A stretch of 64,000 nucleotides of DNA. It comes from Zootoca vivipara. Its lineage: Eukaryota. Shown in pieces: positions 24,151 to 56,074 of the stretch. The notes under the pieces are model-generated. The model saw nothing but the letters and a program-made list of their open reading frames with translations, made no database searches and was not told the DNA's origin. The stretch lies in the NCBI RefSeq assembly GCF_963506605.1, contig NC_083277.1, forward strand, positions 88,412,001 to 88,476,000, given 5' to 3'. The position numbers were made by a program, and so were the translations under genes. Position 1 is the first letter of the stretch. Each line of letters begins with the position of its first letter.

Positions 24151-25408
24151 GCTACATTGAACAGTATGGCTTGCAGAGCTGTTCTCATTGTAGCTACACC
24201 TGACATTCACACTGGGTGGTATCCAACTAACTCATTTAATCAGTGATAGAGTTCCACTTGCACAACAGAGATCTCCCCCCTTTTCTCTCCTCCTGCACTT
24301 CCTAGATCAGTTCTGAAAGTTCCTCCAACACCCTGGAGTAGGTTTTTTGGGGTGGGTGGGTGGGGAGTAAGTGGCGGGAGAATTTCATTGTGCAAGCAGA
24401 AATCCTTGTGCTGATGGAACAAGTTAGTTGGATACTTCCTATTTATTTATTTTTTGTAGTAAATTTTTTATTTAGCAATAAGCCGTAACAGCAGCAACAA
24501 AACAGGAACCTTCAGAGTTGAGCCACAAATTTAGCTCTTCATTTCCTGGTTACCAGTGCAAATAAGGGAACAAAGTAACATAGTTTTCAGATAGCTCCCC
24601 TCCCCCCCCAAAAAAATCTTGTAAATTTTTAAAAGTATAGCAATATTCTTCCTGACACTAAACTCAAATATTTTTCAAAAGGATCCTTACAAAGAGGGCT
24701 TTGAGTAAAATAATGAGCAATATCCTATATAACTGGGTAATTTCTTATAGTGGTCATCTAAAAAAGCAGAGGGCATGACTTTAAATTTTAATTCTGTAAA
24801 CAGGTTCCTAAATGGAACTAAGGTAATTCGTTCTAAATAGTTACCTTTTCTGGTGATCTGGCTTGACACCCATGTTGGATACTAGTTTTTTTCCAGGTGT
24901 TTGTTTTAGCTGATAAAACAAACGACTAAGGATAAGTATACCTGAGAAAACATCTCATTGCTTGTGTCCTGTTAGCTTCTCTGAGATCCCCTAGAGATGC
25001 TCTATTAATGATACCACCTGTGCTGCAGGTTTAGACACCAAGTGTTCAAAAGAAAGACATTCTTAGTACTGTAGTTGTACCCCAGCTATGGAACTACTCA
25101 TTGCAAGCTTGTCAAAGTTGAACCATAGACATGTTTTGGACCAACCTCTTTTGATTGGCTTTCGTGCCCACAGTTAAATTAGCAAAGGGTGGAAACATGT
25201 CAATGGTGTTCTAATATGATGTCATATAATTTGCTGTTTTCCTTTTCTTGCATTACGTACTCTGAACTTCAGGATAGTGTGTGTGGATTATAAAACAAAA
25301 TACAGTGGGATGAACTTTCTGGCTTGAAGGGCAGCCATGGAAGCCACAGTGGTGTACTTGTTTTGTAAAAAGGTTATTTGTATAACGCTAAGCCTAATTT
25401 ATGAAGAT

Positions 25409-25765
25409 GGGATGCGGGTGGCGCTGTGGGTTAAACCACAGAGCCTAGGGCTTGCCAATCAGAAGATTGGCGGTTCGAATCCCCGCGACAGGGTGAGCTC
25501 CCATTGCTCGATCCCAGCTCCTGCCAACCTAGCAGTTGGAAAGCACGTCAAAAGTGCAAGTAGATAAATAGGTACTGCTACAGCGGGAAGGTAAACGGTG
25601 TTTCCGTGTGCTGCTCTGGTTCGTGAGAAGCGGCTTTGTCATGCAGGCCACATCACCTGGATGCTGTACGCTGGCTCCCTTGGCCAATAGCGTGAGATGA
25701 GCGCCGCAACCCCAGAGTAGGTCACGACTGGACCTAATGGTCAGGGGTCCCTTTACCTTTACCTT
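25409..25765 (+). mobile_element. Sauria SINE, full length
   Basis: TSD TAATTTATGAAG (25395-25406, 25766-25777). Confidence 0.93.
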
Positions 25766-26267
25766 TAATTTATGAAGGGAATGGATGAGCCGTGTGATAC
25801 TGCCAGCATCGTTGCTATTAGAAATTCCAGACATCATTCAGTTTGTAGAAAATGTCACAGCCAATAGGTTTACATGACATGAAGGACAACCAATTTGAAC
25901 AGTGTAGGACTTACTGGGAAGTATCCCTCTTTAAGACACTTCAAAGCTAATAATTGGGAATACAAGGATTCCAGGGTTCCATGCTTTGCATGATGGGATG
26001 TTTATATGCCCTACCAACCTTAGAGAGCTGAACCCTTTTTTGTTTAAAACAAATCGAGATATTTGCACGAAGCAATAAATCTTTATGCAATCCTAGGTCA
26101 ACTATTTAAATCAAGAAGGCTGTCACTCTGCACATGCTCAGAACCACATCAGCGTTATTTATCAGTGTGCTATTTTTTCTTCTTATTGGACATGGCAAAT
26201 GAAGTCCATCATACATTTGTGAAGTTACTGCAGCTAAAACAGGATTCTTTTATATTGTGTTGTTGTA

Positions 26268-27400: not shown

Positions 27401-27459
27401 TCTGCACCATTTTAGTGACCTCCAGGTTCTAATAATATTTACCAGTATGTATGTATGTA

Positions 27460-27492
<33 letters not shown>

Positions 27493-27572
27493 TTGTGTGT
27501 GTTATTATTATACACACATATATATTACCGGTAAATATTATTAGAACCTGGAGGTCACTAAAATGGTGCAGA
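27401..27572. repeat. 47-bp inverted repeat with microsatellite loop
   Basis: Arms 27401-27447 and 27526-27572 differ by one mismatch. The loop is (TATG)n(TG)n. Confidence 0.9.
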
Positions 27573-33802: not shown

Positions 33803-36800
33803 TATGTACTCCTAGTTATTAACACCATGCTCAAAATTGAAACCCATGTTAAGATGCAAACTAGAGAAATAATGATAGGAACGAGGCAATTTGGTGCTTG
33901 GAGATTTTGCGGAATGCTAAAATAGAGCTTATATTGGAAATCTTCCCAAAGGTACATAAAAATAATTTCTATATTGAATTATGCATGTTTAATACTACTG
34001 ATTTTAACAGCTGCACTTTTGGTATTGATCCAGGACTAAATATAGCCAGTTCTAGCCATCATGTGAATTGTGCTTTAGAAAAACATTTCATAAGGATAGA
34101 TTGGGGGGGGGGGGAGAGTGAGGTCCTTAACTAGACAGAATACTCCCATAAACCATATTGTATATCCCTTTACTTGCTTCCCATATAATGTAACTTCTAA
34201 GGCCAGAGGATCAAGGTACCATAGGGCAGATGGCTAAATAAATTGGGTGGGTTTTTGTTTTGTTTTTACTATCTCTTAACATTTGAAATTCTGGTTTAAA
34301 ATAAACTGGTTTAAAAGGAAACCTTAATTTAATAGAAGGGTATAAAGGCCTATATACACAATATCTTAAACTAAAACATGAACATCTATCAAACAGCTGC
34401 TGTCACATAGAAAAAAAGAGAAACATGGGGAGGGGTGTCGTGGGGGGTGGTGATGACCTTCTGAGGTTAGTGGTACAGTGCTTTAAATATTTATTCAGAA
34501 TTAGTCCCACTTAGTGCAGTCAAGTAGGTGGGTATGGGATTGCAACTAGGCTGAGCAATGGATTCTTGGCCACACATAACATGCTCTTTGCCAGGGTATG
34601 TACTCCCCCCGCCCTCCCAAGCTTTCTGTGGTTGTAGGTGCTGTCTAGCTGGCTGGTTTCCCTCTGGACCTGGCAGAGGGGTATTTAATCTACTTCCAAT
34701 AGCCGCTCAGCCAGCCTTTGGCTGACTTCAGGATGAGCTGCTTTCAGCATTGTATTCTTTATTTATTTGTTGTATTTACAACCTGCTCTTCCTCCCAAAA
34801 GAGCCTAGGGCAGCATAATACTTAGTTTATACAGTAACAGCACAGTTCTATATATGTGCACTCAGTAGTAAGTCCCACTTGTTTAGGGCTTACTCCCATG
34901 TGAAGACTTAGTCATGAATTGTCTCCATTGCTGTGGGCTTCCTCCCAGGCACTTCAGCAGAAGCATGAGTATACCATGCCAGGATACTCTACTGAGCCCA
35001 TGTAGATGGATCTTGCACTATTTTATGCCTTCCAATTACCTGAGCTCTGCAGTGCATTCAGTTGCAAATTATAAATTCTTATGAGTTAATATTATGAGCT
35101 GCTCCAATAGTCTTCAGACTGACAGAAGCAGAGAAAAATACTTGTAATAAATAAGTATGACTCTACCAACTGAACACCAGAGATACTAGCATTCCATTTT
35201 ATAGAGGTACCATATTTTTTCCCTAGTAACCATCAGCTCGTGCCTCTGAAAAATCCTAGACTTAGCTGCATTCGGTGTATGGTTACTCAGAAGTAAATTC
35301 CATTTTGGTAAATAGGACGTACTTACAAATAAGAGTGCATAGGATCAGTGACGTTGGGCAGAAGATTTGCCAAGATGGGATATTTTTTCTAGTGCTTTAT
35401 TGTTCCATGGAAAATTTTCTGTTTCATAAGTTCGTTAGTAACAAATGATTGAATGCCCTTTGCAAATACAAAATTAGGCAAGCTTGGCAGTTTCGAACGT
35501 GCAATTAATGTTTTTCAGCCAGTTCTCCCAAGCATTGCCTTTAATTATTTACAAGTACTACAAAAACAGTTTTACATGGTATAATATTCAAATAATATTA
35601 AACTTGCTTTAATTTCCCCTGTCAAATATTCCAGGTGTACTGGGACAAAATGTTAACATGGGGTACTTTTAAAGCTTTGTTTACAAATCACCAGTAAAAG
35701 AAACATACTAAATTACATCACACTTTCTAGCGCATCTGGAGATTTTCCAATGCAATTCACATTAGCCTAATTTGTATAGGATCACCCCCCCCCCCGCAAA
35801 AACCCATCAGATTGCTGCATAGGATTGCAGGCCCTTCAGCCTTCAAAGTTGTGATGTTGCTTAATGATATCCTTGCATATATACAGAAGGAGCCACGCAG
35901 AAATTTGTCTCTTATCCCTAAGCAGTTATCATTCTGCAGTTCATGTGAGCTGCATTATGCTCCTAGCTTGTATAACCATCATATTCAGATGCAAACCAAA
36001 ATGTTTTTATGTGTTAAAAGAATCCACCAATAATGCAAATTTCTGCAGGAAATACATGAGTTCCAAAATGGGAAACTTGATTTAAAGCTGTTATCTAAAT
36101 TAGCCCTCGTGTGTGATTTTAAATCTGGAATTTAAAAACAATCCGCAGGGAAAGATCAAAGAAATGAAATACGGCTTTTAATATTTTCAGGAGGTGCCCT
36201 CTGAAATTTATTCAGCTGATATAGTAAGTTTTGGTATAGCTGGGCAGTGTGTTAACCTTGTTCAAAAATGGGAGGCTGGTGGCATATCTAGGAGTTCTGT
36301 TTTTAGTACAGCTGTTGATTCCCACTTCAATATGGTACAATATGTCCTTTCTTCTGGCAGATCAAGCAGAGCAGATAACAGCAAAGGTTGCTAGGTTCTT
36401 AGCTGGGGCAATCAGAATAAGGTCCATTATCTGACTGTTAGCTCAGGACCCCAAACTGTGCTTTTAAATTTAATTTTCACTTTTTTCTGTGTATATTGTT
36501 ATGTTCCCTTGTTGCTATGGCCATTGGCTGAGGCGAATAAAGTTTCTATTCTATGGTACAAAAAGAAGTAACATCCATTAGCACACCTCTGCCTTATGGG
36601 TCAGTAGCTGCAAAATCAGAGTGAAGGGTGAAGTGTAACATGGAGTTTAAAGTATTATTTTTCTCTACCAAATCAATGGACAGATGTAAGTAAGGCAGTG
36701 ACTAGAAACTACCATACTTTTGACATGGTTTGTTCATGATTCCTATCATTGCTAAATAAAAAAATTCCTTCAGTAGCACCTTAAAGACCAACTAAGTTTA

Positions 36801-36807
36801 TATTTTG

Positions 36808-36845
36808 GTATGAGCTTTCGTGTGCATGCACACTTCTTCAGATAC
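36808..36845 (-). ncRNA. Minimal type I hammerhead ribozyme motif (intact core)
   Basis: Minus strand reads GUAU-CUGAAGA-A-GUGUG CAUG CACAC-GAAA-GC-UC^AUAC: stem I GUAU/AUAC, conserved core, palindromic AGCU stem III. Confidence 0.8.
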
Positions 36846-37028
36846 ACTAGAAACAGAAGTGTCAGACCCTATATATATATACAGAGGGTGGTGGGGGTGG
36901 GTGGAAATGGGAGATGGGCTGATGGGAGTGGTAAACCTGTAGATGGGTGTTAATGGCTGCTGATGGCTGCAATTAGTCCTGGGCTGAGGTGCTAAAGAAA
37001 GCTAGGGTCTGACACTTCTGTTTCTAGT

Positions 37029-37066
37029 GTATCTGAAGAAGTGTGCATGCACATGAAAGCTCATAC
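37029..37066 (+). ncRNA. Minimal type I hammerhead ribozyme motif (sense to GAS7)
   Basis: GUAU-CUGAAGA-A-GUGUGCAUGCACAU-GAAA-GC-UC^AUAC. CpG decay turns the stem II closing pair into G-U. Confidence 0.75.
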
Positions 37067-37198
37067 CAAAATATAAACTTAGTTGGTCTTTAAGGTGCTA
37101 CTGAAGGAATTTTTTTATTTTGCTTCGACTCAGACCAACACGGCTACCTACCTGTAACTAGTCCTATCATTGCTGTACCTCTTCAAATTACTTACCAG

Positions 37199-44802: not shown

Positions 44803-45873
44803 TACCAGCCAGAGATCTGTCTGCATCAGAGGTAGCCAACCATCAGAAGTTACCTGCAATCTATATATATATAATATGCCCCTCCCTTCCTCCCAAAGGA
44901 GCCCAGGATGGTAAACACCAGAATTTTGAAATTATGCAATTTAAAATAAGCATATCTGTTTTGAAATGTTTTAATCTAAAAACATTTAAAAGCAATCACC
45001 TTCACAGTTAGCTAATTTACTTCAGGATCTGGACTTGCTAGTGAATAGTGCAAACTGTACCCCCTTTGCACGAATAACTGTGTCAAGTGCGCAGATGTTT
45101 CCTCATCAGGGTCCCTCTTTTTCTTGTGGGGGTTTCCTGCAGTTTGTAAATGAGAAGTGGTTTTCTCTGTTGAGTAAGGCTTGAACTTTCGCCATGGACA
45201 TGCATCCTATTCAGGATGGGTCAGGAAGTCATGTGCTGCTGTCTTATGTTTCCGCAGGCAGCATAAATCTGCGGCGTCAGCTTGTGCAGCCCTAGGCATC
45301 TCCATAGGTTCACAGATGGACCACATTCACAGTTTAGCTCAGCCAGACAGTGGCTGTGTGGAAAGATGTATTATACTTTAATGAGAGCTGTGTGTGTGTG
45401 TGTGTGTGTTTGGGTGTGTCCATGATTCTCACTAAAGTGTTAGCTTTGCTAGGAAGAGCTAGAATTCAGTGTTTAAAAACTCTGGGCCAATATAATTCTC
45501 ATCTATTAGACCAACATAATTAGATCTCCTTAATGTTAATCATTAAAATTACAATTCAGAATGACTCCTTTCTGGATGTCGATTTTGCAGAGGTTAGGAA
45601 GGGCAAATCAGATGCTAGGAATGCTGGAAGTAGTTAGGGGTATATAAAAGAAGGTGGGCAGGCACTGAGGTTCTCAGAAGCCAAGCTGTATATAGTTTAT
45701 ACCATTGAAAGTCCAGTCCAGACTTCACTTGTGTGTGAGACAATCCTCACATCAAGCTTTTCCCTGGAAGATCTAAAGGCTCAAACCAGAGTGTAATGGG
45801 GAAGGCATTCCACTGGGTACCCTGGTCCCAAATTGTTTAGGGCTTTATATACCAGCAATACTGGGTCTATACT

Positions 45874-46362
45874 GGGACGCAGGTGGCGCTGTGGGTTAAA
45901 CCACTGAGCCTAGGGCTTGCCGATCAGAAGGTTGGTGGTTCGAATCCCTGCGACGGGGTGAGCTCCCGTTGCTCGGTCCCAGCTCCTGCCCACCTAGCAG
46001 TTCGAAAGCACGTCAAAGTGCAAGTAGATAAATAGGTACCACTCCGGCGGGGAGGTAAACGGCATTTCCGTGTGCTTCTCTGGTTCACCAGAAGCGGCTT
46101 TGTCATGCTGGCCACATGACCCGGAAGCTGTACGCCGGCTCCCTCGGCCAATAACGCGAGATAAGCGCCCCAACCCCAGAGTCAGTCACGACTGGGCCTA
46201 ATGGTCAGGGGTCCCTTTACCTTTACCTTTAATTTATGAAGGGAATGGTTGAACCAGCCATGTGATACTGCCAGCATCGTTGCTATTAGAAATTCCAGAC
46301 ATCACTCAGTTTGTAAAAAATGTCACAGCCAATATGTTTATTGGGGTCCCTTTACCTTTCCC
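45874..46362 (+). mobile_element. Sauria SINE with captured flank and second tail
   Basis: SINE at 45874-46229, captured segment 46230-46340, second tail 46343-46362, TSD TATACCAG(C/T)AATA. Confidence 0.9.
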
Positions 46363-47599
46363 TATACCAGTAATAAAACCATGAACATTGCTGGGCCACT
46401 GACAAACAACTAATGCAGTTCTTTCAACATAAGGCATGGGTGAGCATCCCTAGGGTCACCACTGAGCACCCTGGCTGATGTGTTCTATACTAGCTACAGC
46501 TTCCGGACTTAGCACAGGGGAAAGCCCACATACAGAGCATCATGGTGGTCTAACTAGGAGGTTGCAAATGTATGGACCGCAGTAGTCAGGCTATTCATTT
46601 TTTTCTTAGATTTATATCCCACCTGGACAATCCAAGGCAGTGCTCATGTGGTTCTCAGGCCATCACCCATCCAGGCACTGGCCAGAGCTACATAAACCAA
46701 CCCTGCGTCAAATATTCTCCAAACACGTTCACATGGAATTGGGGCATTTGGCAGGGCTGAAACGGTTCCTTGCATCCTCCCCTACGTTGAACCTGTCCTC
46801 TGGTTTTCACCTCCACTCCCAGCAGCAGTTCTTGTGTCACTTTCCCCTGCTAGTGGCCTCCTCACATTCCTGTGATTGTAACACACTGCCAGTTCCTCTG
46901 CAGCATGCACACAGCCAATCGGAGCTGCCTATGTAGTGACATCACAAAGTCAATTCAGAGTGAATGTGGAAAGCTATGCTCTCTGTTGAGATGCTGGAGG
47001 GAAAGCTGTGGTGCAAACATTCTTGTTCTCAGTCTTGCCCTGAGAAAATGGTTAAAAGTGAAGCATTTGTTTATAGGGTGCTGGGGGTGTACATGGGGAA
47101 AGAAGTGTTCTTTAGTTCAAAACTAATAAGTACAGCTTGTCCTCTATATGCCAGATCCCACGTCCTCACAGTGCCCATTTGGCCATGTGAGTTTATGTTT
47201 CACTTTGTAGCCCTGAACACAAGCCGGGTCAATCTTTGTACAAAGGGTTGGCTTGATGTAAGTTCAAGGGAAAAGTTCCCCAGAGAGACAGAAATAGGGG
47301 ACATGGGAGGCCAGAGAGGCTACGACTGAACCAAGGGAAGCTTGACAAAGCGGTCCTTGTTTGTCCTGTCTGTGCATGAGGAGCAGTTGGTCAGTGGTAC
47401 AGACCCTCGCTTTGTGCTCCCCATCACCTACACAGACATTTGAAAGCTGGCAGAGGAAAAGACTTTCCAGAAGCTTCACATCTGGAAAGCTTCTAGAATG
47501 GGTCCTTTTGATTTCCAAAGAACAAAATTGAGGGAAGGGAAGTGCTGAAGTGTTTGACACACACACACACACACACCCCTCTGACCCTTGCCCTTCCTC

Positions 47600-48843: not shown

Positions 48844-49552
48844 CCAAATATATCAAATGGTTTGCAAATTCTGTGGAATGGACATACTTCTGCATTGATA
48901 TTTGGTGTGTGTCTTGAAGATGAAGGTTACGTTTGGGCAGGCTTACACAACAACTTTTTTTGTGGGCTACAGAAGCAAACAGAGCATGGTTTTTAAGGTG
49001 GTATATGTGATTCTCAACTACCCTGTCTAAAAATTAATAATCTGTGATCTCTGCTGGAATGCTTCTAAGAATGAAGCTGCTTTAACAACTGCATGCGAAA
49101 ATATCATAGCAAATTTATATCCAGCCATCACAAATCTCTGTAAAATTTTATCTTTAAGTTTGGGACAAAAGCTAGAATCCTTTTTCTGAGTTCATTTCAA
49201 GCCAAAGCATGGCTGTTCCCAAGGGAGATGAATGTATCGGTGACTAAATGTATATTATACAAAGCTTTCAATATACTGTACTCAGGGGAACATATGCCTC
49301 AGAACAGAACTGAAGCTTATTTTCAAAGTCAGGGTTGAATCTGGATCATTTGTGTAGTAGTTTTTTTGGGCATGTACAACATGTCCTTCCTACATGCTGA
49401 GTACCCACAGCCAGCTTCCAAATGTGGGATTAGAAGATACAGGCTTTCTTGCTCAGAAGAATTTTCACACGCAGTTGAGCCCCAAAACACCTTGCTCTAG
49501 ACTTTCGGAAGTGTAGCTGATAAATGCATCCAAGAGTAACATTCTTAGGAGG

Positions 49553-49773
49553 AAAATAAAAAATTCCTTCAGTAGCACCTTAAAGACCAACTAAGTTTAT
49601 ATTTTGGTATGAGCTTTTGTGTGCATGCACACTTCTTCAGATACCTGAAGAAGTGTGCATGCACACGAAAGCTCATACCAAAATATAAACTTAGTTGGTC
49701 TTTAAGGTGCTACTGAAGGAATTTTTTTATTTTGCTTCGACTCAGACCAACACGGCTACCTACCTGTAACTAG
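49553..49773. mobile_element. Penelope-like element terminal remnant, near-perfect palindrome
   Basis: Arms at 49553-49640 and 49645-49733 with a 4-nt loop (ATAC). Same 3' extension as the 36754 copy. TSD ATTCTTAGGAGG(AA). Confidence 0.85.
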
Positions 49774-55953: not shown

Positions 55954-56074
55954 AAACCTAGGAAGGTCATACCTCAAGTCGGAGAAGACACTCAAAATGG
56001 CCACCTCCCACCCGGCTGGCAGAGTTATATGTCTCCCCAGGGACGAAGGTACTACGTGAACACTTTCACCAATG
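55954..56074 (+). CDS. GAS7: GAS7 (growth arrest-specific 7) internal coding exon 2, linker plus most of the WW domain
   Basis: Acceptor tttttctgttgtcctgtcatCAG (ends 55953) and donor G|GTAAGC (56075). 121 bp, phase 0 in and phase 1 out. Translates KPRKVIPQVGEDTQNGHLPPGWQSYMSPQGRRYYVNTFTN, matching mammalian GAS7 KPGMVPPPPGEESQTVILPPGWQSYLSPQGRRYYVNTTTN as recalled. Exon 1 (SH3) and exon 3 were not found in the window. Confidence 0.93.

Follow-up and report, generated by a model that had tools for sequence, protein, structure and literature searches.

A SINE in Zootoca vivipara carries the 3' flank of a neighbouring SINE, most likely as the trace of a break repaired by copying DNA

How did a SINE come to carry unique sequence that belongs beside another SINE, 20.5 kb away? 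The question is raised by a stretch of 64,000 nucleotides from Zootoca vivipara (the window; NC_083277.1, positions 88,412,001 to 88,476,000 of the forward strand). Positions 46230-46340 of the window are a 111-nt copy of 25766-25872. The copies differ by five substitutions, one of them at a CpG, and by one 4-nt indel. The original prediction had reported this match, a second SINE tail behind it and a TSD around the whole, and all three were borne out. It had offered two origins. The first, a 3' transduction or an RT switch onto GAS7 RNA, is disfavoured by the results below. The second, SINE-primed ectopic repair synthesis that overran the end of the donor, is supported, and so are the choice of donor and the local nature of the event. 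The recipient unit most likely records a break that was repaired by copying DNA.

The recipient unit lies on the plus strand. It contains, in order, a TSD, 13 extra bases, a SINE, the captured flank, 2 nt, a second tail and the TSD again. The left TSD copy (45848-45860) agrees with the right copy (46363-46375) at 12 of 13 positions, and this single TSD encloses the whole unit. The 13 extra bases at the 5' junction (45861-45873) hold a short direct repeat of the TSD end and the SINE start, probably the result of a slip. The SINE (45874-46229) is full length, at 355 nt including its first tail, and has a box A-like motif at 45884-45894 and a box B-like motif at 45937-45948. Next comes the captured stretch (46230-46340), copied from the right TSD and 3' flank of the donor. 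The next 2 nt (46341-46342) are absent from the donor and the SINE alike. The second tail (46343-46362) is a 20-nt stub that starts at SINE position 335. A flank and a new tail within one TSD, as found here, are also the marks of a transduction.

The donor is a full-length SINE at 25409-25765, upstream of the recipient on the same strand. Its TSD stands on either side of it, at 25395-25406 and 25766-25777. The template comprised the right TSD copy and the unique 3' flank (25766-25872, plus strand). The captured copy begins exactly at this right TSD, and because the TSD is present on both sides of the donor, the direction of copying was from 25.4 kb to 45.9 kb, as predicted. The flank at 25778-25900 has two matches in the 1.44-Gb genome, both in the window. 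The genome-wide search that had been proposed as a check thus returned donor and recipient only, and the flank is neither a high-copy repeat nor part of a SINE subfamily. The first T4 run in the donor flank lies at 26036, beyond the captured stretch.

The surrounding gene is GAS7, on the plus strand. Its WW-domain exon is at 55954-56074 (plus strand). Its FCH exon lies 53 kb past the end of the window and matches the GAS7 chains 6ikn and 6iko in the PDB. A motif search of 264 kb found no SH3-like first exon, and no upstream exon was located. Nothing about the capture suggests an effect on GAS7. The window also contains two young copies of a palindromic element, about 98% alike and each with TSDs, at 36751-37161 and 49550-49773; the longer has an extra central part. 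At 27401-27572, a 65-bp inverted repeat (92%) surrounds a microsatellite beside a masked stretch.

We take the SINE family at both window loci to be Sauria/Squam1. The recipient SINE agrees with published descriptions of that family, which is abundant in lacertids, in its size of about 360 bp, its boxes A and B and its 3' end of short direct repeats, here a tandem tail (PMC10058329, PMC10702118, PMC10670947). An Rfam search with the SINE returned no match. Exact SINE tail motifs number an estimated 43,000 or so in the genome.

The recipient body was compared with the donor body against a panel of 87 SINE copies. Common-allele differences at sites 32, 118 and 171 and an extra A near 144 separate the two, which confirms the predicted differences at copy-variable sites. 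The bodies have no rare variants in common in this panel, and 68 of 86 copies resemble the recipient body more closely than the donor does. The recipient body is not the donor's. None of it up to about position 311 was taken from the donor, and at most the last 45 nt or so could be copied. Those last 45 nt are uninformative, and the copied tract within the body is unmappable for this pair. Across the panel, the common variant sites occur in many combinations with no clean subfamilies, which suggests frequent recombination among SINE copies.

Units of the same kind were found elsewhere. Three genome-wide patterns, each a tail, a gap of 35-216 nt and a second tail, gave 23, 6 and 72 matches (101 in all). 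Reversed-pattern controls gave none genome-wide. Seventy matches were examined as loci; the other 31 were judged by their first 80 letters and mostly run on into SINE. Among the 70, 18 loci have a non-SINE spacer and an enclosing TSD, scored by script or by eye, with the TSD weak or unclear in L045, L063, L066 and L102. L034, L037, L044, L062, L082, L087, L097, L100 and L104 were rejected as two separate insertions, the TSD closing the first SINE. SINE-only partial dimers and other elements inserted in SINE heads also fall outside the class, and L064, L101, L148, L164 and L170 are ambiguous or outside the donor tests.

About 45 of the 72 third-pattern matches (e.g., L067-L077 and L080-L096) are such partial dimers, in which a tail is rejoined to SINE position 170 or so. 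Their junction has the same 3-nt microhomology each time, and some lie inside one TSD. They represent either a recurrent junction or a dimeric subfamily. At L024-L028 (G000:C2:43939986-43943683), a full SINE is followed by a tandem array that spans about 3.5 kb. The 154-bp unit of the array contains the last 49 nt of the SINE and about 105 nt that begin with the SINE's own TSD. The array is similar to SINE-derived satellites (PMC10702118), and a capture-like junction may have seeded it.

Donors were retrieved for 14 of the 15 spacers searched genome-wide, the window case included. Thirteen of the 14 are on the chromosome of the recipient, 1.6 kb to 5.3 Mb away, and 8 are within 50 kb. With a same-chromosome chance of at most 0.095 each, this gives p = 7e-13. 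Five of the 13 cis donors are on the same strand as the recipient: those of L040 (1.6 kb), L043 (6.3 kb), L035 (19.4 kb), the window (20.5 kb) and L045 (48 kb). Two of these five lie downstream of the recipient. The other eight are on the opposite strand, at L098 (27 kb), L030 (32 kb), L063 (39 kb), L066 (385 kb), L033 (1.48 Mb), L031 (2.07 Mb), L093 (3.86 Mb) and L103 (5.3 Mb). The L102 donor is on a different chromosome. The L065 spacer has no donor genome-wide, and those of L061, L069 and L099 have none within 50 kb. The supposed common intron and the shared orientation of the window pair, which had been thought telling, are a coincidence; what recurs is proximity.

The donor sequence starts at a SINE 3' end in 12 of 14 cases. 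Being within 200 nt of a SINE end has a chance of about 0.6%, and the patterns require two tails or heads within about 220 nt, so this adjacency and the stub lengths (21-74 nt; median, 32.5) are partly set by ascertainment. The L066 and L098 donor sites have no SINE in this assembly. Three donors are 5' truncated, beginning at SINE position 134 (L030), 186 (L093) or 40 (L040). Their recipients are near full length, so these donors cannot be the transcribed parents. T5-T6 runs are present within the copied flank of the donors of L035, L040, L045, L102 and L103, or 5 of the 12 SINE-adjacent donors.

Several copied tracts reach back into the SINE body (L035, L102, L103, L147, L153 and L155). L035 has no mismatches to its donor over about the last 215 body nt and 64 flank nt, and 7 in the first 139. 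Identity between L102 and its donor begins at about position 105. Seven of 13 exit junctions have at least 2 nt of microhomology (chance, 0.17; p = 0.002). Three, including that of the window, have added bases, and three have 0-1 nt of microhomology. At L031 the exact microhomology is 3 nt (script value, 9). L093 contains two templates, from 3.86 Mb and 139 kb away and both beside SINE tails, as if both broken ends had invaded different SINEs. The second template at L119/L093 (G000:C5:34702509-34702708) ends in an inverted SINE tail.

If these units arise when a DNA end invades a homologous SINE, the opposite end should be able to invade as well, which predicts captures of 5' flanks. Two patterns of a head, a gap and a second head were matched 21 and 57 times (78 in all), and 51 loci were examined. 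Eleven of the 51 were scored by script as a 21-42 nt head stub, a spacer and a full SINE in one TSD; the TSD of L170 is doubtful. Donor tests covered 10 of these mirror cases (3 genome-wide, 7 within 50 kb) and recovered donors for 7. Five of the seven are the 5' flank of a SINE 6.6-37 kb away: L155 (6.6 kb), L154 (24 kb), L147 (33.5 kb), L189 (34 kb) and L153 (36.8 kb). Two are on the same strand and three on the opposite one. The donors of L159 (962 kb) and L181 (148 kb; partial) lack a SINE. L158, L161 and L180 have no donor within 50 kb. In L147, L153 and L155, near-perfect identity extends from the flank into the SINE head for 90-165 nt and then decays. Over both classes, 16 of 17 donors searched genome-wide are in cis.

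Many other head-side matches are the partial dimers viewed from the 5' end (positions 1-183 and a full SINE). Short elements of two kinds (L146, L149, L156 and L157; L167, L178, L184 and L193) are inserted at SINE positions 21-33 or so at unrelated loci, which suggests a target preference for the SINE head.

Our main reading, to which we give a probability of about 0.68, is that one end of a SINE invaded a homologous copy close by, was extended past it into the flank and was then end-joined to the stub that remained. The starting point would be a broken recipient, or an open integration intermediate, with the gap about 20 nt short of the 3' end. The long SINE-bearing end would then invade a homologous SINE that was physically close, here 20.5 kb off. 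Synthesis would pass through the donor tail and 107 nt of unique flank. The overrun strand would finally be end-joined to the stub on the other end, by microhomology or with a few added bases, presumably because the stub is too short for in-register re-annealing. An equivalent process at the SINE 5' end would give the mirror class.

We infer a break, an invasion and the enzymes that they call for from several features: donors are close and on either strand, entry is at SINE ends, tracts are partial, stubs are short, junctions bear the marks of end joining, and captures occur symmetrically on both sides of the SINE. Entry through common homology is seen in 12 of 14 donors of the 3' class and 5 of 7 of the 5' class, which start at a SINE end. 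Exit by microhomology or a small insertion is seen in 7 and 3 of 13 junctions. Against invasion stand L066, L098, L159 and L181, the donors of which lack a SINE in this assembly. Homology-led entry would apply to them only if the donor SINE were polymorphic, and microhomology entry fits them better. The window exit junction is also a 2-nt insertion rather than microhomology.

Repair of this kind has engineered counterparts. Tremblay, Jasin and Chartrand (2000), Richardson et al. (1998) and Belmaaza and Chartrand (1994) reportedly found that a double-strand break in a LINE is repaired from other LINE copies, with one-sided invasion closed by end joining. One-sided invasion and long-tract gene conversion (LTGC) resemble the lizard events in homology-led entry from one end, synthesis past the homology and nonhomologous closure. 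Those were engineered breaks in cultured cells, whereas these are natural germline events fixed in a lizard. They also differ in that both SINE ends are involved here, the overruns are 40-190 nt and the spread of donor distances can be measured. SDSA, LTGC and templated insertions are reviewed in PMC7407515 and PMC4888836, and TMEJ after partial resynthesis is described for the human germline in PMC7615360.

The age of the copied flanks bears on when capture took place. Non-CpG flank divergence per lineage, pooled over 14 events of the 3' class, is 42/2952 (1.42%). Private variants of the recipients outside the copied part amount to 34/2504 (1.36%). The ratio is 1.05 (95% CI, 0.65-1.70) and 0.5 is rejected (p = 0.002), with the caveat that donor-allele polymorphism and error-prone synthesis raise flank divergence and source-copy variants raise body counts. 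From this pooled ratio we infer capture at or soon after SINE insertion. L035 and L153 are contrary to capture at insertion; their tracts are perfect and the rest of each recipient has several changes of its own. TSD mismatches, with boundaries set by eye, number 1/89 in young and 6/117 in older events, a nonsignificant difference (p = 0.14) that leans toward capture at insertion. Flank age and body age correlate at 0.34 per event (p = 0.23).

Capture may have occurred during integration itself. Either free end of the intermediate would invade a nearby SINE, copy part of its body and its flank and then complete integration. We hold this version tentatively, at somewhat less than even odds.

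A double template switch by the RT of the partner LINE at integration is an unlikely source of the class. The RT would make 20-70 nt of tail cDNA, jump at microhomology to nearby RNA or DNA and then jump back to full-length SINE RNA. This would account for the one TSD around every unit, the microhomology at exit junctions and a capture age equal to the insertion age in the pooled data (ratio, 1.05). It would also suit the SINE-less L066 and L098, which have 1-3 nt of microhomology on the tail side and 3-4 nt on the stub side. Precedents are tripartite chimeric retroelements made by a double RT template jump within one TSD (PMC2104539) and three L1 insertions that contain DNA copied from close to the insertion site (PMC11702581). 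As here, these have three pieces per TSD and junction microhomology. Their pieces are RNA copies or target-adjacent DNA, whereas the middle piece here is the flank of another SINE, kilobases to megabases away on either strand. A random landing within 200 nt of a SINE end would be expected in about 0.6% of cases, yet 12 of 14 donors start there, although the patterns themselves favour adjacency. The switch leaves the mirror class unexplained, the stub there being the SINE head at the far left, and the templates are on both strands. A switch onto nascent GAS7 RNA would use a sense template upstream in the same transcript. That arrangement fits the window locus only: eight of the 13 cis donors are on the opposite strand and two of the five same-strand donors are downstream. 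The mirror class, the three donors that lack a 5' end and the T5-T6 runs that were crossed also disfavour it.

Template switching at a replication fork (FoSTeS/MMBIR) is quite unlikely. The fork would leave at the SINE end, copy 40-190 nt nearby and return slightly upstream, duplicating the stub. It accounts for that duplication, both strands, both ends, the SINE-less donors and the two templates of L093, and it has a likeness in the short inverted duplications known from humans, which lie within 5 kb. It predicts captures at any age, however, and the pooled divergences (1.42% versus 1.36%; 0.5 rejected) speak against that. Fork switching and invasion with end joining are hard to separate by sequence alone. 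The human duplications, from the 1000 Genomes data, are copies of pieces under 1 kb within 5 kb and show a local bias (PMC4617611). Class 2 TSIPs include experimental insertions from distant sites without chromosome preference (PMC5110952). Both resemble the lizard captures in being short genomic copies with end-joining marks and an intact donor, and the 1000 Genomes class shares the local bias. The captures differ in lying within a retroposon TSD. They also differ from TSIPs in that 16 of 17 donors are in cis, reaching megabases, and in that the end of a SINE is where 12 of the 14 donors of the 3' class begin.

A true 3' transduction is very improbable for the window and largely refuted for the class as a whole. 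The donor would be read through by Pol III or Pol II and retroposed nearby, gaining a second tail. The captured stretch of the window donor has no T4 terminator, so Pol III read-through is possible there, and the donor is upstream of the recipient and in sense with GAS7. LINE and SVA 3' transductions likewise place an element, its parent's 3' flank and a new tail in one TSD (PMC13141329 and PMC7980453, on LINE transductions in dogs). Against this origin, the donor body is less like the recipient body than 68 of 86 copies are, and three donors without a 5' end are paired with near-full-length recipients. The T5-T6 runs in the captured flanks of five donors also count against it, and the cis bias and the mirror class are left unexplained. 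The lizard units differ from LINE and SVA transductions in that the body is not the donor's, the donors are local, some lack a 5' end, the second tail is a stub of the SINE 3' end and there is a mirror class at the 5' end.

An assembly artefact, or the chance neighbouring of two independent SINE insertions, has a negligible probability. The flank copies differ by five substitutions and an indel, which argues against an assembly duplicate. The unit lies inside a TSD, donors have been identified for 14 + 7 cases and the controls are empty.

In a control set of 76 SINE 3' ends and 57 5' ends from 1.26 Mb, flanks are shared by the targeted pairs and by no others. Captures without a stub are absent from the same ends, a sample too small for a rate of 1 in 2000. 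Our literature search, with subscription papers and supplements outside its scope, found no account of SINEs that capture the flanks of neighbouring copies on both sides; older Alu work may have examples. The Sauria/Squam1 papers, in the portions available, cover satellites and orthologous loci and not flank capture between neighbouring copies, and the available part of bioRxiv 10.1101/2025.10.25.684559 contains nothing relevant to it.

The capture at 45.9 kb is real and recurrent; this one genome has 14 + 7 events for which a donor was identified. The events are best read as homology-led templated insertion, a mechanism known in kind, with a two-sided SINE signature that we did not find in the literature. 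Visible cases are rare, at about 18 per 43,000 tail motifs for the gap sizes searched. Silent conversion between SINEs that lie near each other may be commoner, with these cases as the fraction in which synthesis overran. A SINE and a foreign flank in one TSD need not mean transduction, so parent-offspring links and orthology calls made from flanks can mislead.

The captures are a countable natural record of the ectopic partners chosen by broken or integrating repeat ends in a vertebrate germline. The partner is nearly always on the same chromosome, on either strand and at kilobases to megabases. If capture does occur during integration, new SINEs would be recombined at birth with their 3D neighbours, and this would go some way to account for the mosaic pattern of subfamilies. 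False "transductions" would then arise at both ends, and the donor distances of 1.6 kb to 5 Mb would be a fossil map of germline chromatin contacts.
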